A stretch of 38,749 nt of DNA from a virus (taxonomy: Duplodnaviria; Heunggongvirae; Uroviricota; Caudoviricetes): the IMG/VR virus record IMGVR_UViG_2579778884_000012; one strand, 5' to 3'. Numbering within the stretch: the stretch's first letter is position 1; every line of letters starts with the position of its first letter. The notes beneath the pieces were generated by a model that had not been told where the DNA came from, did not search any database, and was given only the letters and a program-made list of their open reading frames with translations. This document shows positions 14,723 to 34,398 of this stretch, in pieces. Position numbers and translations under genes: made by a program.

Positions 14723-15070
14723 TCAACTCACAGGGATGGTTAACGAAAGTGGCTGGCCGGTGTCGTTGTGCTGGCCGGTTAACGTGACCGTCATTCGCCC
14801 GTCAAAACTGCGCTCAGTGGTGACGGATGACAGGGTGACGCGGGGTTCCCATTTCAGCACCGCCATGTAACAGGCGACCTTAATCTGCAACTCAAGCGCC
14901 GGGGTCTGCGGCTGGTCAATCATTGACGCCAGCAACGAGCCGTAATCACGACGCATCACCCGTGAGCCGACCGGTGTGCGCAGGATATCGCCGATACTCT
15001 GGCTGATATGCTCAAGGTCAGTGACAGTCAGGCCATCACTGCGATTCATTCCGAGATAACGCGCTGTCAT
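14723..15070 (-). CDS. W: Baseplate wedge protein gpW (gp25-like), 115 aa
   Basis: 115 aa equals P2 gpW; between V and J. Confidence 0.88.
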   Translation of the reverse strand: MTARYLGMNRSDGLTVTDLEHISQSIGDILRTPVGSRVMRRDYGSLLASMIDQPQTPALELQIKVACYMAVLKWEPRVTLSSVTTERSFDGRMTVTLTGQHNDTGQPLSLTIPVS

Positions 15071-15702
15071 AAAGGACTCCCGGTTGTGCCGCCGCTGTCG
15101 CCGGGGTGTTTATGGGTATGCAGTACCTTACCGTTTGATGAGAGTTCACCGCCGGTGTGTTCAATGTTGCCGCGCATCGTCCCGCCCTTCTGCACTTCCA
15201 GCGTGCCGGTGATCAGCTTGTTTGTGCAGACCACCTCCGGCGTGTCCAGAGTGATGCGGGTTGATGCTTTCACCATGACCACCGGCACCGTGGCAGTAAC
15301 AGAATCAGAAGCCGTCACGCTGGCCGTTTTAATTCCGCTTACCGTAAGCGCACTGGTTTCGGGTTCATACTCAATCACCGCCCCGTCAGGGAAACGGATA
15401 TGCAGGGCATCCGCCGACGCAGACGGCGCAGGGTTATCGCCGGAATAAATCCCCGGCAGAACGAACGCCGTGTCGAGTTCACCGCCCACGGCCAGAATCA
15501 GCACCTGTTCCCCCACGGAAGGTGCCCACCATGTGCGCGAACGTCCGGCGCGATGGGTCAGCCACTGAAGCCAGTCGGTGCACATGCCGCCGGTCTGCAC
15601 ACGGCAGCGACCGGCGTTAAGGTCGGTTTCAACGATAATGCCGGTACGAATCATGTTGCGCAGTGCGCGCGCGAGTTCCTGAATATTTGCGAGAGTGTCC
15701 AT
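15067..15702 (-). CDS. V: Baseplate spike protein gpV, 211 aa
   Basis: Starting at the internal Met (MDTLANIQELARALRNMIRTGIIVETD...) gives 211 aa, equal to P2 gpV. The track ORF carries a 6-codon extension. Confidence 0.85.
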   Translation of the reverse strand: MDTLANIQELARALRNMIRTGIIVETDLNAGRCRVQTGGMCTDWLQWLTHRAGRSRTWWAPSVGEQVLILAVGGELDTAFVLPGIYSGDNPAPSASADALHIRFPDGAVIEYEPETSALTVSGIKTASVTASDSVTATVPVVMVKASTRITLDTPEVVCTNKLITGTLEVQKGGTMRGNIEHTGGELSSNGKVLHTHKHPGDSGGTTGSPL

Positions 15703-15785
15703 GCATGTGAGATTGCACAATATATAAAAGTTATGCTATCTGGATTCATTTGTAGAACCACCAGACAACATTCAAGGAGAGCGTA

Positions 15786-16562
15786 ATGGTCAGCTATAAT
15801 GTGACTAATGTGTGGGAGCTAATCGTTTTGTATCTTTTGGTCTTTGCAGTATTAGCATTTTTTAGCTTTGGTAAAAGTAACCTTATGAGGCTTATTGCAC
15901 ATTATTTCAAATTTGGATATTCAGACAAAAAATTAAAAAGACTGGACCGCGAGTGGCGCGACATTCAACTATTTAAAATACTTAACGGAATCAATGTATC
16001 AGGCATCGAAGATGTGAGAATGATACAGCAGGGGCTGATTGATGGAAAACTAAAAACATCGGATTTTTTCCTTACTCGCTTCTGGGGAGACATAACAGAA
16101 CCGCCATGCATCACAAAAACAATGAGTGCAGTCCTGGCCGGAATTCTTTATATTATCTTCGCATGTTGCATACACAACGAGCAATCTGCCATAGTAGAGG
16201 ATGCCATAGCCATACCATATAAAAATATGATGTACCATGTTTATAATGACAAGGTTCTTTTGTTCTCCGACAATAAAACAGATAAGTTCTATAAAGCTTT
16301 TAGCATTGCCGATTGCAAGAGACTGCAGAACACTTTTGTAACAGACACACTTCCTGCAATCGCCTGCAATAAGCTCTTACAGCTAAACGAGGAGGACTCC
16401 GAATGGTTAAGTCAGGAGATTAAAGATAATAACAGCCACAGAAAAACATTATTAATAATATCCCTAATCTATTTCATTTCAGGTGCGTATTTTCATGAAA
16501 GGAGATCACTCAATAACTTCCATCGAGATCGGGTAATAACATTTGAACAGATCGCTGAATAA
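15786..16562 (+). CDS. Hypothetical integral membrane protein (accessory gene at the orf30 position), 258 aa as it stands
   Basis: AT-rich ORF on the strand opposite the late genes, with a good RBS (AAGGAGAGCGTA ATG). Three predicted hydrophobic helices (about residues 12-29, 114-130, 230-245). Its last seven codons and stop lie inside the inferred IS terminal repeat. Confidence 0.65.
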   Translation: MVSYNVTNVWELIVLYLLVFAVLAFFSFGKSNLMRLIAHYFKFGYSDKKLKRLDREWRDIQLFKILNGINVSGIEDVRMIQQGLIDGKLKTSDFFLTRFWGDITEPPCITKTMSAVLAGILYIIFACCIHNEQSAIVEDAIAIPYKNMMYHVYNDKVLLFSDNKTDKFYKAFSIADCKRLQNTFVTDTLPAIACNKLLQLNEEDSEWLSQEIKDNNSHRKTLLIISLIYFISGAYFHERRSLNNFHRDRVITFEQIAE

Positions 16563-16676
16563 CATCGATGGAGATCACTTTTGACTCATTTTGTTATTCA
16601 GTGATCTCCATCAATGTTATTGGAACTTCACAGGTGTGTTGATCTGTATCTTTTGCCATTCCGGTAAAGGATACCT

Positions 16677-18218
16677 ATGCCAACAGTTCCAATTTCTATG
16701 AGAAAACTTAAAGAAATTCTTAGGCTTAAATACGGTGTTGGACTCAGCCATCGACAAATTGGTCGTAGTCTTGCAATCTCCCCTTCCGTTGTATCCAGAT
16801 ATGCTAATCGGGCGGCTCAACTTGGCATAAAGCAGTGGCCCTTACCTACAGGATGGGATGATACAAAACTAAAACATGCGTTCCTTCAGACCCAGGTTAA
16901 GATGAAGAAGCACTCTCTGCCTGACTGGGCTACAGTACACCGGGAACTGCGTAATAAATGCGTGACGCTGCAGCTACTCTGGGAAGAATACTGTGAGCGT
17001 AATCCAGGCGGTTTTTACAGCTATAACCATTACTGCCGGATGTACCGTGAATGGCTCAAAACCACTTCACCATCAATGCGTCAGGTACATAAAGCTGGCG
17101 AAAAACTTTTCGTTGATTACTGTGGACCTACCGTTGGCGTTACCGACCCTGAGACCGGAGAAATAAGAACTGCTCAGGTCATCGTAGCTGTTCTCGGGGC
17201 ATCAAGTTACACATGGGCAGAGGCCACCTGGTCTCAGCAGCTTGAAGACTGGGTGATGAGTCATGTTCGCTGCTTCCAGTGGTTGGGTGGCGTTCCTGAA
17301 CTTGTTGTTCCGGACAATCTGAAAAGCGCCACATCCAGGGCATGTAAGTATGATCCTGACGTTAACCCTACCTACCAGCAGATGCTTGAGCATTATAATG
17401 TCGCAGTTTTGCCTGCGCGGCCACGTAAACCGAAAGATAAAGCCAAAGCTGAAGTTGGCGTTCAGGTTGTTGAACGCTGGATCATGGCCCGAATCAGGCA
17501 TGAGATCTTCTACAGCCTTGCATCGCTTAATCAGCGCATTCGGGAGTTGCTGGAAAGACTGAATAACAAAATAATGCAGAAGTTGGGTTATTCACGTGCA
17601 GAACTCTTCATCCAGCTTGATAAACCCGCACTGAAGCCTCTTCCTGAAGCCAGTTACAGTTACACCCTGGTGAAGAAAGTCAGAGTTCATGCCGATTACC
17701 ACGTGGAAATCGACAAACATTACTACTCGGTTCCATGTTCGCTGTTAGGCCAGCAACTGGAAGCATGGATCTCCGGAGAACTGGTAAGACTCTTCAATCA
17801 GGGGCAGGAGGTTGCTGTGCACCCGCGCAAGCGTACTTATGGCTACAGTACCCGCAACGAGCACATGCCTGAAGCTCATCGACAGCATGCCACCTGGACG
17901 CCAGAGCGTCTTCTGGAATGGGCGGGGCACATAGGCAGTGAAACTCATAGTTATGTGCTTCATATACTGAACTCTCGTCCACATCCGGAACAAAGCTATC
18001 GCTTCTGCCTTGGACTCCTGAACCTTCATAAAAAATACAGTAAAGCCAGACTTAATGCAGCATGTGCAAGAGCTCTGAAAACAAAGGTATGGCGTCTGTC
18101 AGGTATTAAATCGATCCTGGAAAAAGGTCTGGATAAACAACCTGTTCAGGATCCAAAACCAGATCTGTTATCCACGATGGAACACGAAAACGTACGCGGC
18201 AGTGAGTATTACCACTGA
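16677..18218 (+). CDS. istA: IS21-family transposase IstA, 513 aa
   Basis: N-terminal helix-turn-helix (LSHRQIGRSLAISPSVVSRY), central DDE-type integrase-like region, followed 12 bp later by istB; typical IS21 layout. Confidence 0.85.
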   Translation: MPTVPISMRKLKEILRLKYGVGLSHRQIGRSLAISPSVVSRYANRAAQLGIKQWPLPTGWDDTKLKHAFLQTQVKMKKHSLPDWATVHRELRNKCVTLQLLWEEYCERNPGGFYSYNHYCRMYREWLKTTSPSMRQVHKAGEKLFVDYCGPTVGVTDPETGEIRTAQVIVAVLGASSYTWAEATWSQQLEDWVMSHVRCFQWLGGVPELVVPDNLKSATSRACKYDPDVNPTYQQMLEHYNVAVLPARPRKPKDKAKAEVGVQVVERWIMARIRHEIFYSLASLNQRIRELLERLNNKIMQKLGYSRAELFIQLDKPALKPLPEASYSYTLVKKVRVHADYHVEIDKHYYSVPCSLLGQQLEAWISGELVRLFNQGQEVAVHPRKRTYGYSTRNEHMPEAHRQHATWTPERLLEWAGHIGSETHSYVLHILNSRPHPEQSYRFCLGLLNLHKKYSKARLNAACARALKTKVWRLSGIKSILEKGLDKQPVQDPKPDLLSTMEHENVRGSEYYH

Positions 18219-18229
18219 TACGGGATCCA

Positions 18230-18979
18230 ATGATGAATCATCTTTACGAACAACTGACCGCACTTAAACTCACCGGCTTCCGTGATGCGCTTAAAAAGCA
18301 ACTTGCTCAACCGGGCACATACCAGGAGCTGGGCTTCGAAGAACGCCTGTCATTACTGACAGCAGAAGAACTAACCTGCCGTGAAAACAGGAAGGCAGAG
18401 CGTCTGATCAAACATGCACGGTTCAGACTTAATGCTGAGTTATCAAAGCTGGATTATCGTAACAATAGAGGGCTGGACAGGGCCCTCATCCGTTCACTCA
18501 GTCAGGGAAACTGGTTAACCCTGAAACAAAATATTTTACTGACCGGGGCCACCGGCAGCGGTAAAACGTTCCTGGCATGTGCACTTGGTCATAATGCCTG
18601 CCGACAGGGATACAAGGTCTACTATTATCGCCTTAAAGCGCTGATGGAACAGTGCTATCAGGGGCATGCTGATGGAAGATACAGCAAACTTTTGACCAGG
18701 CTGAATAATAGCGATCTGCTGCTTCTGGATGACTGGGGGCTGGAACCTCTCTCATCAGAACAGCGTAGCGACCTGCTGGAAATAGTGGATCTGATGTACC
18801 AACGAGGCTCAATCATCGTAGTGAGCCAGTTGCCGGTGGAAAACTGGTACAAAATGATCGGAGACTCCACACATGCGGATGCCATCCTAGATCGACTGGT
18901 TCATGGCAGTATCAAGATCGAACTTAAAGGAGAATCAATGCGGAAAATACAATCTCCGTTGACCGAAGGAGATCAGTGA
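18230..18979 (+). CDS. istB: IS21-family ATP-binding helper protein IstB, 249 aa
   Basis: Walker A motif GATGSGKT and Walker B LLLLDDWG; DnaC-like AAA+ fold typical of IstB. Confidence 0.88.
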   Translation: MMNHLYEQLTALKLTGFRDALKKQLAQPGTYQELGFEERLSLLTAEELTCRENRKAERLIKHARFRLNAELSKLDYRNNRGLDRALIRSLSQGNWLTLKQNILLTGATGSGKTFLACALGHNACRQGYKVYYYRLKALMEQCYQGHADGRYSKLLTRLNNSDLLLLDDWGLEPLSSEQRSDLLEIVDLMYQRGSIIVVSQLPVENWYKMIGDSTHADAILDRLVHGSIKIELKGESMRKIQSPLTEGDQ

Positions 18980-19228: not shown

Positions 19229-19681
19229 CTAACGCTCAAGGTGAGCCAGGATAATCTCTTCAATCATCTGCACATCCTCACCGGTAAAGCCGAGCAGAGG
19301 ACGCGCCGGATAATCAGTTTTCTTACCGTCTTTCCGGGTTTCTTCCGACAGACCGAACTGATGCACACTGGCAATTTTCGGCGACTTCCCGCCGTAAAAC
19401 TCCATTGATGCCTGTTCCGGGCTGGCGCGGATATGCAAAAAACGACTGGTGATAAGTTTCGCAAACATTTTTCGCTTAACACGACCGGTCTTTTTTCTGG
19501 CGCTCTGCTGCTGGCGTGGCACGTAGGGTGTGCCGTCCGGGGCTTTCTGTGCCATCACCCGACGCTGCTGACTCTGACGCAGACGTTTCGCCAGTTCGGC
19601 GCTCAGTCGCCGACGCCCTGACGGTGACAGCGATTCAGTCAGTCCGGTCAGCCGGTCTTCAAAACGCTTAAACTCATTCAT
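19229..19681 (-). CDS. S: Tail completion protein gpS, 150 aa
   Basis: 150 aa equals P2 gpS; follows R. Confidence 0.88.
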   Translation of the reverse strand: MNEFKRFEDRLTGLTESLSPSGRRRLSAELAKRLRQSQQRRVMAQKAPDGTPYVPRQQQSARKKTGRVKRKMFAKLITSRFLHIRASPEQASMEFYGGKSPKIASVHQFGLSEETRKDGKKTDYPARPLLGFTGEDVQMIEEIILAHLER

Positions 19682-25602: not shown

Positions 25603-27375
25603 ATGACCATCACCACAGACACCACTCTTTTACACGACCCGCGTCGTCAGGCGGCGCTGCTGTACTGGCAGGGGTTTTCCGTGCCGCAGATTGCCGCCAT
25701 GTTGCAGATGAAACGCCCGACGGTGCAGAGCTGGAAACAGCGCGACGGCTGGGACAGCGTTGCCCCCATCAGCCGTGTCGAAATGAGTCTGGAAGCGCGG
25801 CTGACCCAGCTCATTATCAAACCGCAGAAAACCGGCGGTGACTTCAAGGAAATTGACCTGCTCGGACGCCAGATTGAACGACTGGCACGGGTAAACCGCT
25901 ACAGCCAGACCGGCAACGAGGCAGACCTTAATCCGAACGTCGCTAACCGCAACAAAGGCGGGCGGCGCAAACCGAAAAAGAATTTTTTCAGTGACGAGGC
26001 TATCGAAAAGCTGGAGCAGATTTTCTTTGAGCAGTCTTTCGACTATCAGTTGCACTGGTATCGCGCCGGGCTTGAGCACCGCATCCGCGATATCCTGAAA
26101 TCCCGCCAGATTGGCGCGACATTTTATTTTTCCCGCGAGGCGCTGCTGCGCGCCCTGAAAACCGGTCATAACCAGATTTTTCTGTCGGCCAGTAAAACGC
26201 AGGCGTATGTGTTCCGTGAATACATCATCGCCTTTGCCCGTCTGGTTGACGTTGACCTGACCGGTGACCCGATTGTCCTGGGCAATAACGGCGCAAAACT
26301 GATTTTTCTCGGCACCAACTCCAACACCGCACAGAGCCATAACGGTGACCTGTACGTCGACGAGATTTTCTGGATCCCAAATTTTCAGGTTCTGCGTAAG
26401 GTGGCATCAGGTATGGCCTCACAGAGTCACCTGCGCTCGACCTATTTCTCCACCCCGTCCACACTGGCGCACGACGCCTACCCGTTCTGGTCGGGTGAAC
26501 TGTTCAACCGGGGACGCGCCAGCGCCGCCGAACGTGTGGAAATCGACGTCAGTCATAACGCCCTTGCCGGTGGGCTTCTCTGTGCGGACGGCCAGTGGCG
26601 GCAGATTGTCACCATTGAGGACGCCCTGAAAGGTGGCTGCACACTGTTCGACATTGAGCAGCTCAAACGCGAAAACAGCGCCGACGATTTTAAAAACCTG
26701 TTCATGTGTGAATTTGTTGACGACAAGGCATCGGTGTTCCCGTTCGAGGAGCTGCAACGCTGCATGGTCGACACGCTGGAAGAATGGGAAGACTATGCAC
26801 CGTTTGCCGCCAATCCGTTCGGCTCCCGCCCGGTATGGATTGGTTACGACCCGTCACACCGTGGCGACAGCGCCGGATGCGTGGTGCTGGCACCGCCGGT
26901 GGTGGCCGGTGGCAAATTCAGGATACTTGAGCGTCACCAGTGGAAAGGCATGGACTTTGCCACCCAGGCTGAATCCATCCGCAAACTCACCGAAAAATAT
27001 AACGTCGAATACATCGGTATTGATGCCACCGGCCTCGGTGTCGGCGTGTTCCAGCTCGTGCGCTCGTTCTATCCCGCCGCGCGCGATATCCGCTACACAC
27101 CGGAAATGAAAACCGCAATGGTGCTCAAGGCAAAAGACGTTATCCGCCGTGGCTGTCTGGAATATGACGTCAGCGCCACCGACATCACCAGCTCGTTTAT
27201 GGCTATCCGCAAGACCATGACCAGCAGCGGACGCAGCGCCACCTATGAGGCCAGTCGCAGCGAGGAAGCCAGCCACGCCGACCTCGCCTGGGCGACCATG
27301 CACGCCCTGTTAAATGAGCCACTCACCGCCGGTATCAGCACCCCGCTGACATCCACCATTCTGGAGTTTTACTGA
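25603..27375 (+). CDS. P: Terminase large (ATPase) subunit gpP, 590 aa
   Basis: Internal Met gives MTITTDTTLLHDPRRQAALLYWQGFSVPQIAAM..., 590 aa as in P2 gpP; divergent from O. Confidence 0.9.
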   Translation: MTITTDTTLLHDPRRQAALLYWQGFSVPQIAAMLQMKRPTVQSWKQRDGWDSVAPISRVEMSLEARLTQLIIKPQKTGGDFKEIDLLGRQIERLARVNRYSQTGNEADLNPNVANRNKGGRRKPKKNFFSDEAIEKLEQIFFEQSFDYQLHWYRAGLEHRIRDILKSRQIGATFYFSREALLRALKTGHNQIFLSASKTQAYVFREYIIAFARLVDVDLTGDPIVLGNNGAKLIFLGTNSNTAQSHNGDLYVDEIFWIPNFQVLRKVASGMASQSHLRSTYFSTPSTLAHDAYPFWSGELFNRGRASAAERVEIDVSHNALAGGLLCADGQWRQIVTIEDALKGGCTLFDIEQLKRENSADDFKNLFMCEFVDDKASVFPFEELQRCMVDTLEEWEDYAPFAANPFGSRPVWIGYDPSHRGDSAGCVVLAPPVVAGGKFRILERHQWKGMDFATQAESIRKLTEKYNVEYIGIDATGLGVGVFQLVRSFYPAARDIRYTPEMKTAMVLKAKDVIRRGCLEYDVSATDITSSFMAIRKTMTSSGRSATYEASRSEEASHADLAWATMHALLNEPLTAGISTPLTSTILEFY

Positions 27376-28409
27376 TGAGCAAGAAAAAAGGGAAAACACC
27401 GCAACCTGCGGTGAAAACAATGACCGCCAGCGCCCCGAAAATGGAGGCATTCACCTTTGGTGAGCCGGTGCCGGTACTCGACCGCCGTGACATTCTGGAT
27501 TACGTCGAGTGCATCAGTAACGGCAGATGGTATGAGCCACCGGTCAGCTTTACCGGTCTGGCAAAAAGCCTGCGTGCTGCCGTACATCACAGCTCACCGA
27601 TTTACGTCAAACGTAATATTCTGGCTTCAACGTTTATTCCGCACCCGTGGCTTTCCCAGCAGGATTTCAGCCGCTTTGTGCTGGATTTTCTGGTGTTCGG
27701 TAATGCGTTTCTGGAAAAGCGTTACAGCACCACCGGTAAGGTTATCAGGCTGGAAACCTCACCGGCAAAATATACCCGCCGTGGCGTGGAGGAGGATGTT
27801 TACTGGTGGGTGCCGTCCTTCAACGAGCCGACAGCCTTCGCGTCCGGCTCCGTGTTTCACCTGCTGGAGCCGGATATTAATCAGGAGCTGTACGGCCTGC
27901 CGGAATATCTCAGCGCCCTTAACTCTGCCTGGCTGAATGAGTCGGCCACGCTGTTCCGCCGCAAGTATTACGAAAATGGCGCACATGCTGGATACATCAT
28001 GTACGTCACCGATGCCGTGCAGGATCGCAACGATATCGAAATGCTTCGCGAAAACATGGTGAAGTCGAAAGGCCGCAATAACTTTAAAAATCTGTTTCTC
28101 TATGCCCCACAGGGGAAAGCCGACGGCATTAAAATTATCCCCCTCAGTGAAGTGGCGACGAAGGACGATTTTTTTAATATCAAAAAAGCCAGCGCCGCTG
28201 ACCTGCTGGACGCGCACCGCATCCCCTTTCAGTTGATGGGTGGCAAGCCGGAGAACGTCGGGTCGCTGGGTGATATTGAGAAAGTGGCAAAGGTCTTTGT
28301 CCGCAATGAGCTTATCCCGTTACAGGACAGGATCCGCGAGATAAACGACTGGCTCGGTCAGGAGGTCATCCGCTTTAAAAACTACTCACTTGACACTGAC
28401 AACGGCTGA
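27375..28409 (+). CDS. Q: Portal protein gpQ, 344 aa
   Basis: 344 aa equals P2 gpQ; start overlaps the P stop (ATGA). Confidence 0.9.
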   Translation: MSKKKGKTPQPAVKTMTASAPKMEAFTFGEPVPVLDRRDILDYVECISNGRWYEPPVSFTGLAKSLRAAVHHSSPIYVKRNILASTFIPHPWLSQQDFSRFVLDFLVFGNAFLEKRYSTTGKVIRLETSPAKYTRRGVEEDVYWWVPSFNEPTAFASGSVFHLLEPDINQELYGLPEYLSALNSAWLNESATLFRRKYYENGAHAGYIMYVTDAVQDRNDIEMLRENMVKSKGRNNFKNLFLYAPQGKADGIKIIPLSEVATKDDFFNIKKASAADLLDAHRIPFQLMGGKPENVGSLGDIEKVAKVFVRNELIPLQDRIREINDWLGQEVIRFKNYSLDTDNG

Positions 28410-28570: not shown

Positions 28571-28589
28571 GTGCTTTCCCCGCCTCGCC
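28571..28589. other. cos cohesive-end site (19 nt)
   Basis: GTGCTTTCCCCGCCTCGCC is the reverse complement of the P2 cohesive end as I recall it (GGCGAGGCGGGGAAAGCAC), about 160 bp after Q as expected. Confidence 0.75.
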
Positions 28590-28827
28590 CGCCCGCTTCA
28601 TGGGGCGGTTTTAATGCAGTTGCATAGATACTATGGATCCGCACCAGTCCTGACCGCACGCAGCCTGAACGGACATCCCCGACGCATGCAAAAACATTCA
28701 CTTGTTGCATGCAACGGCTTATTTAATGACAAATCAACTTAAATTTACAAAATCCACAGGTATGGATACTTTGCGAACATGATAGGCTTACGAGAATTAT
28801 CGTGCCTGTTTTTGAACGGAGAAAGTT

Positions 28828-29769
28828 ATGCAAGGTGAAGTTGACGAACAGCAACCAAATGAGATTATTTCGGAGTTTGGATACTATCCAGTAGAAGTTA
28901 ACATTGAGACTGAACAATTTTCTTTGCGTACTTTACCCGGTCTTATTGAGAACGTGGAACGTATTAACAATGATAAAAACGTTGTTAATGGTTGGATATA
29001 CCCTGGGAATCGAAAGGTATATAACCTTAATGGTGACACATGCACAATGCCTTATAGTTACCGAGTATTCGGCATGCCCAAAACGCACACACTAAAATTA
29101 AAAAACACATCCTCGTTAGAAACTCTCAACTTTGTTGTGTGGTGCCTCTCTTTTTTCAAGGGTATAAGATTGACAACCACTGACGCTGGTTTTCTTGATG
29201 CAACCACTATCAAGCCCACTAAGTTAACCGACTTTATTCTCGTTGGATGCTCTGAAAAAGAAGTAATAGAGCTAGCACTTAACTATATAAAAGACAAACA
29301 AAAAGATGATCGCTCCATTAAAAGAATAGCTGCGGTGATACACTCCCTATTCCTGTCACATAACCCACTATACCTTTCCTTTGAGAAATTCCAGTATCTT
29401 TATATGGCTCTTGATTGCTGTTTTGCTATAGCATGGGATGAAAGGGATAAAGTCATTAAAGAGAAAAAACCATCTCATCAAAATAGAGTATATTGGATGT
29501 GCGAAAATTACGGTGTAAAAATCCCGTCATGGGCAACAGATGAATGTAATGTTTCAGTTATACGCAATGATAATTTTCATGAAGCCATTTTTAATGGGCA
29601 ACCGCTTGGTTTCTCTAGTATCAATGATTGTCAATATGGTAGCGATATATTGCTACAAATGCAGGCTCTGGTATGTCGTCTACTAGCGGCAATACTCTCT
29701 GTAAATGATCGTAAATATATCGCATCTACAATCAGCTCGATAGAGTACCATTCATTAAAATTAACTTAA
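28828..29769 (+). CDS. Hypothetical protein with C-terminal HEPN-like R-x4-H motif (accessory cargo at the old/tin position), 313 aa
   Basis: AT-rich ORF with RBS GGAGAAAGTT ATG. Residues 246-251 are R-N-D-N-F-H (CGC AAT GAT AAT TTT CAT, 29563..29580), the HEPN-type motif, about 60 residues from the C-terminus. Not P2 Old or Tin by size or sequence. Confidence 0.6.
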   Translation: MQGEVDEQQPNEIISEFGYYPVEVNIETEQFSLRTLPGLIENVERINNDKNVVNGWIYPGNRKVYNLNGDTCTMPYSYRVFGMPKTHTLKLKNTSSLETLNFVVWCLSFFKGIRLTTTDAGFLDATTIKPTKLTDFILVGCSEKEVIELALNYIKDKQKDDRSIKRIAAVIHSLFLSHNPLYLSFEKFQYLYMALDCCFAIAWDERDKVIKEKKPSHQNRVYWMCENYGVKIPSWATDECNVSVIRNDNFHEAIFNGQPLGFSSINDCQYGSDILLQMQALVCRLLAAILSVNDRKYIASTISSIEYHSLKLT

Positions 29770-30088
29770 TGCTAACGCCTCACTTCGCTCGTTGTTCAAC
29801 TCCGCCAGCCTGAAAACAAGTTTCACGACTGGCGGCGTTCTCTATCGTCTGCGTGGTGGTGGCGCAACTCTGGACTGACCGATATAGTTAAACCGCCCGT
29901 AATTATCCCAGACTATTTCGGCACACCCGACCAGCTCGTCAGGCGTCAGATTTTCGTTGACCATAATCTGCTGTAAACGGTGAACAATGGCCATCAACCT
30001 GACACTTTTGGTGTTATATGTGGTATCTCACATGAGATTACTGACCAAGGTGCATCTTGGTTGACTCATTTCATATCCATCCACACCA

Positions 30089-30769
30089 CTACATCTTTAT
30101 TGCATATTTATTAAAAGACGCCCAGTTCAATAAAAAAACATTATTCATATACCATTCAATATAATTTTTATTTTTAGATTGACTGTCAAGTAGCACACAA
30201 ACATCAACCTGTTTATCAATCAATTTTGCAATATAAACCACAAACTCAACACTCGAATATCTCTTTGTGCCTAGCAAATATAATATTTCATCTGACAAAT
30301 AATTAGACTCATGTGAAAAGACATTATCATTTAACAAAATCAACCCGCCAATCGAGTCATTTAAATCCAAAACATCCTTTGTTGCATTTATTTGCTTATT
30401 AGCTTCCTTAACTATCTTTGTTTTAATATTTTCATAAGCAAAGTTCATTATATCATTTCTAAATCGCTTTGAGTCTGGGTGTCTTTTTATCAACTCTTCT
30501 AAATGAATAGCACCATGCCAGTTTTTTGCAAGCCAACTATCAGTTTTAACCAACTCATTCAGTTTATCATTGACATTCTTGACCCTGTCAGAAAAAAGAC
30601 TTTTCATCTCCAAAATTATCTTTTTATTATCAATAAGATAATCTGCCATCTTGCGATTCTGACCATCCTTCATCCGGAACTTATGATGAATATCATCAAT
30701 AGAAATCCCTTTTTCATGCTCAACAATGAATCTCTTAACATTGTTTTCTAATTCGCTGTATTGTTTCAT
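30089..30769 (-). CDS. Hypothetical protein (accessory cargo), 226 aa, probably co-transcribed with the upstream DUF2158-like gene
   Basis: AT-rich Lys/Asn-rich ORF; start 27 bp after the small upstream gene's stop, with a GGGGGA RBS; no motif I recognise. Confidence 0.6.
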   Translation of the reverse strand: MKQYSELENNVKRFIVEHEKGISIDDIHHKFRMKDGQNRKMADYLIDNKKIILEMKSLFSDRVKNVNDKLNELVKTDSWLAKNWHGAIHLEELIKRHPDSKRFRNDIMNFAYENIKTKIVKEANKQINATKDVLDLNDSIGGLILLNDNVFSHESNYLSDEILYLLGTKRYSSVEFVVYIAKLIDKQVDVCVLLDSQSKNKNYIEWYMNNVFLLNWASFNKYAIKM

Positions 30770-30796
30770 ACTTTCCCCCGTGAATTTTATTATGAT

Positions 30797-30988
30797 TCAC
30801 TTACGTGGACGACAAAGCATACCACTTTTACTCTCTGCTATTTCCAGTAAATCAATGGAGAATGACTCCTCGTGCAAAACTCCTTCTTTATCATGCCAAA
30901 TACATTTAGCATGAGTTTCAGTAGAGTCAGATACAGTCATTTTAAATCCACCGCTTTTCAAACAAACAACATCTGCAGGCTTTAACAT
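30797..30988 (-). CDS. Small DUF2158 (YodC-like) family protein, 63 aa
   Basis: From the internal Met with RBS GGAGATAAAA ATG: MLKPADVVCLKSGGFKMTV...CIWHDKEGVLHEESFSIDLLE, matching the DUF2158 pattern (V-x-LKSGG-x-MTV ... C-x-W) as I remember it. Track ORF extended by 28 codons. Confidence 0.55.
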   Translation of the reverse strand: MLKPADVVCLKSGGFKMTVSDSTETHAKCIWHDKEGVLHEESFSIDLLEIAESKSGMLCRPRK

Positions 30989-31114
30989 TTTTATCTCCAA
31001 CATTTTTAAGTAATGCATTATAACATAATGATATTGACGTAGATTTAATGCATGCAACCATATAAAAAACAATCAATTACAGTCAAAACTACTTATACTG
31101 TATAGATGAGATCC

Positions 31115-33400
31115 TTACTCAAATTGATGCCAGAATCCCGACCACTCATCAGCGACCGGATACGTGAATTTTTTCCCGTCATAATTTACGGTCGCGCCAC
31201 GCGCCAGCGCCTCAAGCTCCCATCGCTGCGGCCTGATACCGTTCTGAGCAAGGTCAACGCGGATACGGGTGATTTGCAATCGTTCAGACCGGGTCAGTCT
31301 GGCCGATGGCGCTATTTCATGCGGTTTTAACGGGCTTCCGTTTCTTTGCTGACGGTTTGGTCTTCTCAGGCCGTGTTTTAATGCACCTCTGAGCGCCCTC
31401 ACGACCTCCGGGTCATTCCATTCGATAACACCGTCATCTACCAGATTAAGCACTGCTGCGGCGTGCTCAGAAGGTGTGGGAGCCGGTAACGAAGTATCAC
31501 CACCGGTGAGCTTTCCACAGTTATTGACAGGACTCCGAGGCGCGGCGATGCCGCTTTTTAAAGTCAAAGGCTCAACGACCGGCACTTTCGGAACAATGCG
31601 CCAGTCCGTCGTTCTGGTGATATGAATATGACGCGCGCCGAGATGCGGCGCGTAAATGCCGACCACTCTCTCGACTTCTTCCTCGTACTCGTTAACGTCA
31701 TCCGACGGGCTACGGGCGACCCTGACAGTCTGACAATCGCGCGGGACATTTGCCCCGCCCTGCGCGCTGATATACAACGCAAAATCACCACTGTCTGCAG
31801 CGGCGCGTGCAGCCTCGACGCGCTCGTCAAACTCATCAGCAATGCTGACGCCGCGAGGCAATTTGCGTAGTTCACGGTAAGCCCCCATTGTCGGCAGGCC
31901 AACCGTTTTAAATTGCGGAATGCGCCACGTTGACGCCCATGCGGTAACAGCCGCGGCAGTGTCTTTCAGCGGCCTGCCGGTATCGTTATCGAGCTGACCA
32001 TCCAGTGCATAGCCATCGATGTTTTTTGAGATGTATTTCGCGATATACCCTGCAGCACCGCCCCGGTTAAGGTGTTTTGCCTGAAAACGGTTTCGCGCAG
32101 CTCCTCTTTCGTCGCCATCCTCTTTGAGCGCGTAGCGACGCATGATTTCAATAATCTGGTTACGCTGGCGTGGATTACAAAAAAGCATCATATGCCAGTG
32201 CGGCGTTCCGTCGTGGTGTGGCTCGACGACTCGCAAACCGTAGACCTGTAAATCATTATCCTTGAATGCCGTGCGCATCAGGCTCCAGATACGGCAGAGA
32301 TAACGCTGCGCATCCTTTGGATTAAATGCCTCATCGTTCCAGCCGTGATTAAGCTGAACGGTTTTACTTTCGCCTTTTCCGACCTGACGTGTCGGGTGAT
32401 ACTTTGACGGCGCGGTCAGCGTGATAAACATCCCCACATCACCCTCTGCGGCGGCGTAACGCTCAATACCGGCAATGGTGTTCATCAGCTCCATCCGGCG
32501 AATTTCAGGATTAGAAATACTGCCCATCACCTTACTGATAAGGTCGATGCGTTCGCCGGTTTCCCTGTTTTCAAGGTCACACGATTTAAGAAACTCCAGA
32601 TTTGCCTGGCGGCGCGCACGCACATCACGAATGGCATGTTTACTGGCATAAGGAGAACGGTCTTTATTGACCTCCCCGACAGCAATCAGTAACGCCTCAT
32701 GCCAGCGCATACGCTGGCCTTTAAGCTGATGAGTCCACCACTCATCGTTAAACAGACGGGCAATGGCAGAATATGCCTGCCTCGTGGTTATCTGTCCTTT
32801 ACGGTATTTTTTCCAGTAGAGCGGGGAAATATTGAAAGCACGTGCAGCGCCAGCAACATGACCATACAGGTGAGTCTGCGCCTCATCCGTAAACAGCGAT
32901 TCTTTTTCGCCATGTGCATCAACCCATGCATCGCAGAGTTCCTCATACATCATGAAAAGCTGCGATGAGATACGGGCGGCAAACTTTTTCAGCTCCTTGT
33001 CATTCATTCCAGGCAGGCGCGCATAGTGGTCACGCTCTGCCAGAAATAGCAACGACGCGTCGGTGTTCATTTCATGGCGCTGATTCACGCGCTCAATGCG
33101 CGGCCATAAACGACGCTGAAAAGTAGATGTGAGGAAATAAAACCCGTGCACCGGGCTTTTATTGCGCCGGATGTAGTCATAGCGTGAAGTAAACAGCGAG
33201 CGCAAAAAGTAAGGCAGGCGGTTAATCGTGGATAAAACACCTTGCACCTGACGCATCTCGTCACGTGTAAGGGGTCTTTCGCGCCCGACGGCCTCGCGTG
33301 GCGCGTTCCATGCATAAGCACCGGTAAACGCCTTACCGGTGCCTGCAGCAAATGCTGACGGAGGTACGCAGGTGTATTGCTCCTGGAAAGAATGACTCAT
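31115..33400 (-). CDS. A: Replication initiation protein gpA (rolling-circle endonuclease), 761 aa
   Basis: 761 aa equals P2 gpA; position after the early small ORFs. Confidence 0.9.
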   Translation of the reverse strand: MSHSFQEQYTCVPPSAFAAGTGKAFTGAYAWNAPREAVGRERPLTRDEMRQVQGVLSTINRLPYFLRSLFTSRYDYIRRNKSPVHGFYFLTSTFQRRLWPRIERVNQRHEMNTDASLLFLAERDHYARLPGMNDKELKKFAARISSQLFMMYEELCDAWVDAHGEKESLFTDEAQTHLYGHVAGAARAFNISPLYWKKYRKGQITTRQAYSAIARLFNDEWWTHQLKGQRMRWHEALLIAVGEVNKDRSPYASKHAIRDVRARRQANLEFLKSCDLENRETGERIDLISKVMGSISNPEIRRMELMNTIAGIERYAAAEGDVGMFITLTAPSKYHPTRQVGKGESKTVQLNHGWNDEAFNPKDAQRYLCRIWSLMRTAFKDNDLQVYGLRVVEPHHDGTPHWHMMLFCNPRQRNQIIEIMRRYALKEDGDERGAARNRFQAKHLNRGGAAGYIAKYISKNIDGYALDGQLDNDTGRPLKDTAAAVTAWASTWRIPQFKTVGLPTMGAYRELRKLPRGVSIADEFDERVEAARAAADSGDFALYISAQGGANVPRDCQTVRVARSPSDDVNEYEEEVERVVGIYAPHLGARHIHITRTTDWRIVPKVPVVEPLTLKSGIAAPRSPVNNCGKLTGGDTSLPAPTPSEHAAAVLNLVDDGVIEWNDPEVVRALRGALKHGLRRPNRQQRNGSPLKPHEIAPSARLTRSERLQITRIRVDLAQNGIRPQRWELEALARGATVNYDGKKFTYPVADEWSGFWHQFE

Positions 33401-34398
33401 TCACATACACCGGCATAGACACTACTGCAAACTGACTTATCATTCACCGAAGCCAGCAAATCAAACTGTGCCCCGCCACGCGTGGTCATCGCCCAGTCAC
33501 GATAAGACTCAATTCCGTAAGCATCGACAGTAATAATATCAATGCGGCGTTCCGCACGACGCGGGTCATGAGTTGACGGGAAGAAAGTAGAATTTCCGCG
33601 TCTGGAGCATGCGGCGACAAGTCGCTCCCATTCCGCAACACGCTTAACCTCTTCCGGCCAGCGACTAAAAATTTCAGCTAATTCAGACTTTCTGGCGTGG
33701 ATGCAGGGCATACAACCGACACGACTGCATCCCTGCTGGTATAACGGATTAGGTTTAATTCCATGACGTCTTGCAAATGCAAATACCTCCTCATGCGTCC
33801 AGTTCAGAATAGGACGGTATACATGGAGCCCGGGCGTATTGTCCGCATCCTCTTCCCAGGCAGGCAGACCCGCGCGCGCAGGAGACTCCTGAGCGCGAAT
33901 CCCCTGCCAGCTAATTACCTCATCAAACTCATTAAGCGCAGGTAACACGACCTGAGTACGTACTGGCTCATGTTTAAGGTCAAAAGTGCAAAATCTGGCT
34001 TTAGTGGAAGGAAATCGCCCTTTCCACATGCACAAATCAAGAAATGGGATACCAGTAGGCTTGAGAATTTCCAGCGCACAATTGATGCGCTCTGCCGCTT
34101 CCCCCGGAGACATTCCGCACTCTTCAACCAGAGAAACAGGCCATTTCTCAGCAATAAACTTGCGCTTACCTTCAATCTGTCGGGAGAAGTCAGCTTTAAC
34201 CCGTTTAACCGGCCCGAGTCGGTTCTCCAGATAATCGAGATACTCCATTGTCTGCGGATGCTCATGCCCGGTGTCTGCAAAAACCGGCAAAAAAATGCAC
34301 ACCGCTTTCAATACCAACAAGCCATTGAGCAAGGCTATCCTTTCCGCCAGAAACAGAAATAATATTGATAGAGCTTTCAGCTCGGCAGCGGGTATCAA
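33397..34398 (-). CDS. PAPS reductase-like (adenine nucleotide alpha-hydrolase superfamily) protein, up to 333 aa
   Basis: Resembles the phosphoadenosine phosphosulfate reductase family often annotated in prophage early regions; N-terminal 40 residues hydrophobic; overlaps the A start by 4 nt (ATGA). Family assignment is by eye, from memory. Confidence 0.5.
   Translation of the reverse strand: MIPAAELKALSILFLFLAERIALLNGLLVLKAVCIFLPVFADTGHEHPQTMEYLDYLENRLGPVKRVKADFSRQIEGKRKFIAEKWPVSLVEECGMSPGEAAERINCALEILKPTGIPFLDLCMWKGRFPSTKARFCTFDLKHEPVRTQVVLPALNEFDEVISWQGIRAQESPARAGLPAWEEDADNTPGLHVYRPILNWTHEEVFAFARRHGIKPNPLYQQGCSRVGCMPCIHARKSELAEIFSRWPEEVKRVAEWERLVAACSRRGNSTFFPSTHDPRRAERRIDIITVDAYGIESYRDWAMTTRGGAQFDLLASVNDKSVCSSVYAGVCE

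Follow-up and report, generated by a model that had tools for sequence, protein, structure and literature searches.

Between gpA and cos, P2 carries old and tin, two accessory lysogenic-conversion genes; Old combines an ABC-ATPase with a TOPRIM nuclease, and Tin is unrelated. In P2-like phages this cos-proximal interval, from gpA to gpQ, is a hotspot that carries validated anti-phage systems (PMC9122126). We analysed the occupants of the same slot in a P2-like prophage, the IMG/VR virus record IMGVR_UViG_2579778884_000012 (Caudoviricetes), a stretch of 38,749 nt referred to, at its whole length, as the window. They are a small gene for a DUF2158 protein and, downstream of it, a gene for a 226-residue protein, ORF226, and they show no homology with Old or Tin. 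On balance we lean towards the view that the pair is a ~1-kb mobile accessory cassette acting as a nuclease-based module against phages or other mobile genetic elements (MGEs).

The locus itself was sequenced in 2006 and catalogued in 2022. GenBank entry AM157369.1 holds the proviral ORF73, ORF226 and ORF313 of the TO region of P2-EC67, which is the same locus with no structural difference: the window shares 93% DNA identity with it over 2.56 kb, and the proteins are 99% (ORF226) and 100% (DUF2158) identical. In Table S5B of Rousset et al. 2022 (PMC9122126) the pair is P2-hotspot system #63, ‘DUF2158’, with 67 occurrences in 18,150 loci, and the listed proteins match those of the window with two substitutions in ORF226. 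Thus the pair, which an initial annotation made from the sequence alone had proposed as an undescribed defence module, was already on record, in a hotspot that is textbook knowledge for P2. Both records label the proteins ‘hypothetical protein’ or ‘DUF2158’, start the small gene at 73 residues and come without fold, motif or function; DUF2158 and COG5475 are scarcely mentioned in the literature searched. What is new here is that ORF226 is assigned to the nucleases and the extent of its uncurated family is measured, together with the modelled fold of DUF2158, the limits of the cassette with a promoter-like element, and evidence that the nuclease family can dispense with DUF2158.

The gene pair and its position

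Open reading frame (ORF) calls placed both genes on one strand (coordinates in Table 1), each with an ATG start, with TGA as the stop of the DUF2158 gene and TAG as that of ORF226, and with a gap of exactly 27 nt between them. Shine–Dalgarno-like sequences (TTGGAGATAAAAATG and GGGGGAAAGTATG), that is candidate ribosome-binding sites (RBSs), lie 5′ of both starts. The GC content is 0.380 for DUF2158 and 0.301 for ORF226, compared with 0.535 for gpA, 0.529 for Q and 0.510 for the whole window, and ORF226 contains 11.9% lysine and 10.2% asparagine. The pair is flanked by gpA on the DUF2158 side; on the other side, at 28571–28589, lies the 19-nt string GGCGAGGCGGGGAAAGCAC, which we take to be the P2 cos, adjoined by the portal gene Q. 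The same string is present in cos-proximal P4 sequences in Table S2 of Rousset et al. 2022. The slot of the pair is the gpA–gpQ hotspot of P2-like phages. In coordinates, shared strand, gap, separate RBSs, visible AT-richness relative to the backbone, the Lys/Asn-rich character of ORF226 and position between gpA and cos, the initial annotation was borne out.

Comparison of the Escherichia coli alleles with those of Citrobacter gave a non-synonymous rate (dN) of 0.133 for each gene, and ratios of non-synonymous to synonymous rates (dN/dS) of 0.185 for DUF2158 and 0.087 for ORF226, which marks both as genuine genes kept by purifying selection. Spurious or decaying ORFs are ruled out by these ratios (0.09–0.19) together with conservation across genera. 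The starts that give DUF2158 73 or 91 residues, as annotated elsewhere, are unlikely because the upstream ATG (31018) overlaps the −10 element described below and lies in another reading frame in Citrobacter.

ORF226 is a predicted PD-(D/E)xK nuclease

ORF226 matched no model in Pfam, NCBIfam or PADLOC, and belongs to PHROG 20483, which has no assigned function. A word-indexed search recovered only relatives of at least 64% identity, from Escherichia, Salmonella, Citrobacter and Pantoea, and an exhaustive profile search gave 346 cluster representatives at E ≤ 1e-3, 75 of them at E ≤ 1e-10. Ten clusters were looked up; every named member was a ‘hypothetical protein’, and the named hosts were Serratia, Photobacterium, Vibrio, Shewanella, Achromobacter and Candidatus Rifleibacterium. 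In a 40-sequence alignment spanning 19–64% identity to ORF226, the only invariant columns were D43, E54, K56, Q126 and N147. A family hidden Markov model (HMM) alignment of 150 sequences with mutual identity ≤50%, counted over the sequences covering each column, had Asp at position 43 in 145/145, Glu at 54 in 147/147, Lys at 56 in 147/147 and Gln at 126 in 145/145; the D43-x10-E54-x-K56 triad was intact in all 141 covering representatives.

The AlphaFold2 model of ORF226 (predicted local distance difference test score, pLDDT, 79.9; predicted template modelling score, pTM, 0.76) has D43 at the entry of strand 44–46 and E54-x-K56 in the next strand, 51–57, the motif sitting on a β-hairpin. In the model this is the canonical PD-(D/E)xK active-site position. 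We therefore regard ORF226 as very probably a PD-(D/E)xK nuclease, mainly from a motif that never varies and, in the model, sits in the right structural place, with predicted fold similarity in support. The initial annotation had been unable to assign the protein to any family, a statement that was too strong given a large family, an invariant D…ExK and a predicted restriction-endonuclease-like fold. By sequence, ORF226 lies outside every curated family when set against BsmI, N.BspD6I, NgoMIV, NucC, NucS and the Pfam families REase_DpnII-MboI and Mrr_cat, and neither protein of the pair has sequence homology to solved structures. A further difference from known PD-(D/E)xK nucleases is a long helical insertion, residues 62–134 in the model, which bears the never-varying Q126.

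ORF226 itself did not match Pfam REase_DpnII-MboI (PF18742; gathering threshold 27 bits), and seven of the 40 relatives matched it below threshold (best E 1.1e-3; P0027 at 17.7 bits). Unlike Type II/IIS restriction endonucleases, ORF226 has no adjacent methyltransferase: none was found between gpA and gpQ, nor adjoining the Pantoea, Serratia or Vibrio relatives, and in the lack of a cognate methyltransferase the locus differs from a restriction–modification (R-M) system. The weak but recurrent DpnII-MboI similarity and the missing methyltransferase would both suit a reading in which the two genes are unrelated neighbours, with ORF226 a solitary restriction-type nuclease that is modification-dependent or else makes use of a host methylase (Dam, for instance), and DUF2158 an independent moron hitch-hiking beside gpA. 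We judge this reading unlikely. Relatives occur in Achromobacter and Candidatus Rifleibacterium, outside the Dam-methylating gammaproteobacteria, which argues against a general Dam-based logic; the variant of a Dam-protected, DpnII-like GATC nuclease, given also the sub-threshold Pfam similarity, has a low probability. The bearing of gene distribution on this reading is taken up below.

Seven longer relatives of 563–739 residues (P0043, P0046, P0047, P0055, P0062, P0112 and P0132) contain an ORF226-like domain at approximately 337–525 with D..ExK, Q and N intact. A Pfam scan of three of them found an N-terminal Mrr_cat domain in P0046 and P0062, which would therefore be two-nuclease-domain proteins, and no match in P0043. 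A C-terminal SEC-C motif was present in P0062 and in the 520-residue P0083, whose ORF226-like domain spans 126–282.

DUF2158 is modelled as a small β-barrel

The small protein, described as DUF2158-like from the outset, passed PF09926 (DUF2158/YodC) over residues 6–46 with 33.1 bits against a cutoff of 22.3 (E = 4.7e-8). In a model built from a shallow alignment (pLDDT 81.9), residues 7–50 form the five strands of an SH3/KOW-like β-barrel, followed by a low-confidence basic C-terminal tail. Genes with a YodC (COG5475) domain are co-located with the UG2/DRT2 defence reverse transcriptases (Mestre et al. 2022, PMC9226505). In both situations a defence effector, here a candidate one, has a gene for a small YodC/DUF2158 domain as its neighbour. 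They differ in that the UG2/DRT2 partner is a reverse transcriptase and the YodC domain there belongs to a fusion with additional regions, among them a WYL-like domain, whereas here DUF2158 is a stand-alone protein of 63 residues beside a predicted nuclease.

A small upstream gene, a 27-nt gap, a larger nuclease gene and one promoter are also the layout of a type II toxin–antitoxin (TA) operon. ORF226 would then be a nuclease toxin and DUF2158 its antitoxin, in an addiction module that stabilizes the prophage and possibly acts by abortive infection too; the equal dN of the two genes is in keeping with this. The model of DUF2158, however, has none of the helix–turn–helix, ribbon–helix–helix or AbrB folds typical of type II antitoxins. 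Together with the solitary nuclease relatives described below, this leads us to rate a TA module as distinctly improbable.

Limits of the cassette and neighbouring cargo

Homology of the window with Yersinia phage VB-YPM-4 covers 28590–30029 at 98.7% identity and then resumes at 31132; the break between 30029 and 31132 therefore delimits the exchanged segment. VB-YPM-4 has orf91 (DUF3850/ASCH) and orf92 beside gpA, and the same ORF313. By this comparison, the cassette stands where other P2-like phages have orf91 and the beginning of orf92; it takes the place of orf91 on the gpA side, with ORF313 on the cos side. In the Citrobacter P2-like prophage (L008) homology is confined to 30099–31081 (77.6%), that is both genes and ~90 nt upstream of DUF2158, with little beyond. 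An extended −10 promoter-like element upstream of DUF2158 is kept as TGATATAAT in the Citrobacter cassette, as are the GGAG RBS and the 63-residue start. A weaker promoter match by consensus, TTGACT-18-TATGGT, lies at 31086–31057. The homology block and the conserved upstream element therefore point to a unit of ~1 kb with its own promoter-like element. For the reading of ORF226 and DUF2158 as mere neighbours, a block that holds both genes and the shared promoter region as a unit is a point against.

Two features between the pair and cos, on which the initial annotation was silent, complete the interval. The first is a 51-residue ORF, which from its profile match is the C-terminal part of a P2 orf92-like backbone gene and marks the cos-side recombination junction of the cassette. 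The second, ORF313, matched nothing in Pfam, NCBIfam or PADLOC, and its PHROG, 5937, has no assigned function. The Yersinia phages VB-YPM-4 and vB_YpM_46 have it at 98.6% DNA identity and lack the pair; conversely, the pair occurs without ORF313 in the Citrobacter prophage, where a different 250-residue gene is present, and on two metagenome contigs (L035 and L036) with no third gene. ORF313 is thus probably an independent module. A single system of DUF2158, ORF226 and ORF313 was considered unlikely, as ORF313 is convergent with the pair, stands alone in the Yersinia phages and is replaced or absent elsewhere.

Rarity, co-inheritance and solitary relatives

Either protein was found in two of 50,697 phage records, and both of these have both proteins. 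Among 5,426 complete E. coli genomes the pair was present in 27, with both genes together in 27/27. A backbone gene is ruled out by this rarity, in agreement with the earlier description of the pair as cargo. All 26 contigs that were read for the exact DUF2158 protein have the order gpA, DUF2158, ORF226, an ORF of 50–63 residues, ORF313 and portal, as far as the contigs reach; on contig L020 ORF226 was called at 203 residues only, and contig L021 stops at the DUF2158 gene. A tblastn search of PLSDB plasmids with ORF226 gave no match, and a related-locus search with alignment A1 returned near-identical viral contigs only.

In all the E. coli, Salmonella and phage records examined, DUF2158 and ORF226 are inherited together. 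At least three P2-like backgrounds, which differ in their other cargo, keep the two at an unchanged distance: one with ORF313 (E. coli and Salmonella), one with the 250-residue gene (the Citrobacter prophage) and one with nothing else (L035 and L036). This recurrence, the purifying selection on DUF2158 and the count of zero E. coli genomes or phage records with one gene alone argue against a chance association of neighbours. Strict co-inheritance in E. coli and Salmonella (all 27 genomes and all 26 contigs) would also be expected of a TA module.

Relatives outside this group gave a different picture. A Pantoea relative of 64% identity, on plasmid-like contigs, has no DUF2158 ORF upstream, and the Pantoea relatives are placed between replication and transfer genes; nor does DUF2158 precede a copy of 67% identity (L038). 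On a metagenomic P2-like contig (L037), beside the 3′ end of gpA, the DUF2158 gene (540–659) has a premature stop at codon 40 and the nuclease gene (769–1458; 76% identity) is intact, amounting to a natural ‘DUF2158 knockout’ on one contig from a single assembly.

More distant copies are solitary. In a Serratia fonticola prophage (L009, 6001–7539; 40% identity) the homologue lies between a CI/S24-type repressor gene and a DUF4238 gene, with a BamHI-type R-M system 5 kb away; DUF4238 is a validated anti-T7 defence gene (PMC9122126). The Shewanella copy follows a DUF6966 gene, and that of Candidatus Rifleibacterium is beside DUF559/MTES_1575 and a type I R-M system. On the chromosome of Vibrio sp. 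ED002 (L030, 5842–6825) a 26%-identical homologue is a single-gene cassette between attC-like repeats, in an array of 16 such repeats in 12.7 kb whose other cassettes include GIY-YIG, DUF4145, Mrr_cat, APH and SLATT_5. Chromosomal integron arrays are reported to be rich stores of defence genes (10.1101/2024.07.02.601686).

The TA reading meets its main difficulty here, because a constitutively toxic nuclease could not persist without its antitoxin gene. A type II toxin gene would be expected always to have its cognate antitoxin gene beside it, whereas DUF2158 is absent (Pantoea, L038) or interrupted (L037) next to intact nucleases of 64–76% identity, and all distant relatives examined are solitary, including the integron cassette. 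Given the solitary relatives, the nuclease therefore cannot be constitutively lethal without DUF2158; a classical antitoxin becomes less likely on this ground, and an accessory or regulatory role more so. The reading of two unrelated neighbours gains from the same observations, as the nuclease family is overwhelmingly stand-alone and DUF2158 has decayed on L037 beside an intact nuclease gene. Consequently, it is doubtful that the pair forms one obligate system, since both close and distant nuclease relatives occur without DUF2158.

A candidate defence module

A defence role is suggested by association, namely by the hotspot, by the defence-type neighbourhoods of relatives and by the integron report. 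As claimed in the initial annotation, the gpA–cos locus holds variable cargo, in a hotspot where anti-phage systems have been demonstrated (PMC9122126), and the pair is neither Old nor Tin nor another nameable defence family: PADLOC-DB v2.0.0, which covers Old, Tin-type, PD-T4/T7/lambda and PDC candidate models, gave no match at E ≤ 1 for DUF2158, ORF226 or ORF313. A PADLOC scan of 40 ORF226 family members produced isolated chance-level matches only. No homology to a non-defence function was found for either gene.

We envisage that an extended −10 promoter of its own would drive the cassette while the early operon is repressed, so that it would be on in the lysogen. ORF226 would be the effector, a metal-dependent PD-(D/E)xK endonuclease that uses D43, E54 and K56 to cut the nucleic acid of the invader or, alternatively, that of the host in an abortive mode. 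With no methyltransferase at the locus and solitary relatives in many genomes, the nuclease could therefore not be constitutively toxic. Self nucleic acid would have to be spared, either through infection-dependent licensing or through recognition of a feature of foreign DNA, be it a modification or the lack of one. The most likely role of DUF2158 would be an accessory one, as an adaptor or regulator fine-tuning targeting or activation within the P2 lineage; an obligatory antitoxin is unlikely.

A more ambitious form of this proposal is a true two-component immune system of a novel type, in which the KOW/SH3-like DUF2158 senses a cue from the phage or the host machinery and licenses a PD-(D/E)xK nuclease that belongs to a new family and is methyltransferase-free, the same sensor domain being reused beside DRT2-type reverse transcriptases. 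DUF2158 might, for example, sense it by binding nucleic acid or a factor of transcription or translation, as KOW domains do. We regard this stronger version as doubtful.

Several results count against a nuclease-based defence module. Foldseek found nothing significant for ORF226 in the Protein Data Bank (PDB; best E 0.16), a profile search of PDB sequences with the ORF226 family found no nuclease, and the Pfam restriction endonuclease matches within the family are all sub-threshold. The extended −10 at 31017–31025 is a putative cassette promoter, assigned by consensus match only, and a promoter scan of the region barely exceeded the shuffled expectation (14 compared with 8.8 ± 2.8). DUF2158 is missing or decayed beside close nuclease relatives, which makes its functional link to the nuclease a putative one. 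Rousset et al. 2022 do not list the pair among the systems that they cloned and tested (Table S2), and no paper testing it was found in the literature searched. Only three of eight additional P2-hotspot systems tested protected against the panel used by Rousset et al., and in approximately one P2-like phage in four the gpA–cos locus holds a partition system, which is not a defence function (PMC9122126).

The pair might, finally, serve an end other than defence, as a phage-serving nuclease (in host DNA degradation, recombination or anti-defence) or as neutral selfish cargo. Anti-defence genes can be located close to the transfer origin of plasmids, and the Pantoea relatives do lie between replication and transfer genes. 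The hotspot, too, accommodates partition systems and cytolethal distending toxin (PMC9122126). Set against this are a promoter-like element of its own outside the early operon, the defence-type surroundings of relatives (a type I R-M system in one case, DUF4238 in another, SLATT and Mrr integron cassettes in a third), and strong purifying selection, which argues against neutral junk. The cassette is also rare and replaceable, and is therefore dispensable for the P2 life cycle. We find such a non-defence role very unlikely, and retain a nuclease-based anti-phage or anti-MGE module as the favoured explanation.

Features of the window

Table 1. Coordinates of the gene pair, its surroundings and further features of the window
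Feature	Position	Strand	Remarks
DUF2158 (YodC/COG5475-like)	30797..30988	−	63 aa; modelled SH3/KOW-like β-barrel with basic tail
ORF226	30089..30769	−	226 aa; predicted PD-(D/E)xK nuclease of an uncurated family; putative active site D43, E54, K56 with Q126, N147
Swapped segment (promoter, DUF2158, ORF226)	30030..31131	−	from comparison with VB-YPM-4 and L008
Extended −10 promoter-like element TGTTATAAT	31017..31025	−	consensus match; 29 nt upstream of DUF2158 start
ORF92-like remnant	29842..29997	−	51 aa; GC-rich; phrog_11386, E 3.7e-26, profile positions 18–69 of 69
ORF313	28828..29769	+	AT-rich cargo, 37% GC; phrog_5937, E 5e-199; convergent with the pair
gpA	31115–33400	−	flanks the pair on the DUF2158 side
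Portal gene Q	27375–28409	+	adjoins cos
PAPS-reductase-domain gene	33397–34398	−	333 aa; PF01507, E 1.3e-31
IstA-like transposase	16677–18218		rve and Mu-transposase C-terminal domains
IstB-like ATPase ORF	18230–18979		

The PAPS-reductase-domain gene lies directly upstream of gpA, overlapping the gpA start, inside the early replication operon. An IS21-family element is located within 15786–18979, between the tail gene S (19229–19681) and the baseplate gene V (15067–15720). Adjoining it is an AT-rich ORF of 258 residues (15786–16562) with hydrophobic stretches and no family match, and this region may be a second cargo site.

Conclusions

As it stands, the pair is one among many catalogued hotspot cargos and would not surprise a specialist. 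If it were protective, it would become a named addition to the P2-hotspot catalogue. The never-varying residues D43, E54, K56 and Q126 are ready sites for point mutants, and the solitary nucleases, together with the decayed DUF2158 copy, offer a probe of what the small protein contributes. If the proposed role is true, a family of 346 or more sequence clusters, for which Pfam, NCBIfam and PADLOC have no model at present, would gain a function, as would the widespread and so far unexplained YodC/DUF2158 domain.

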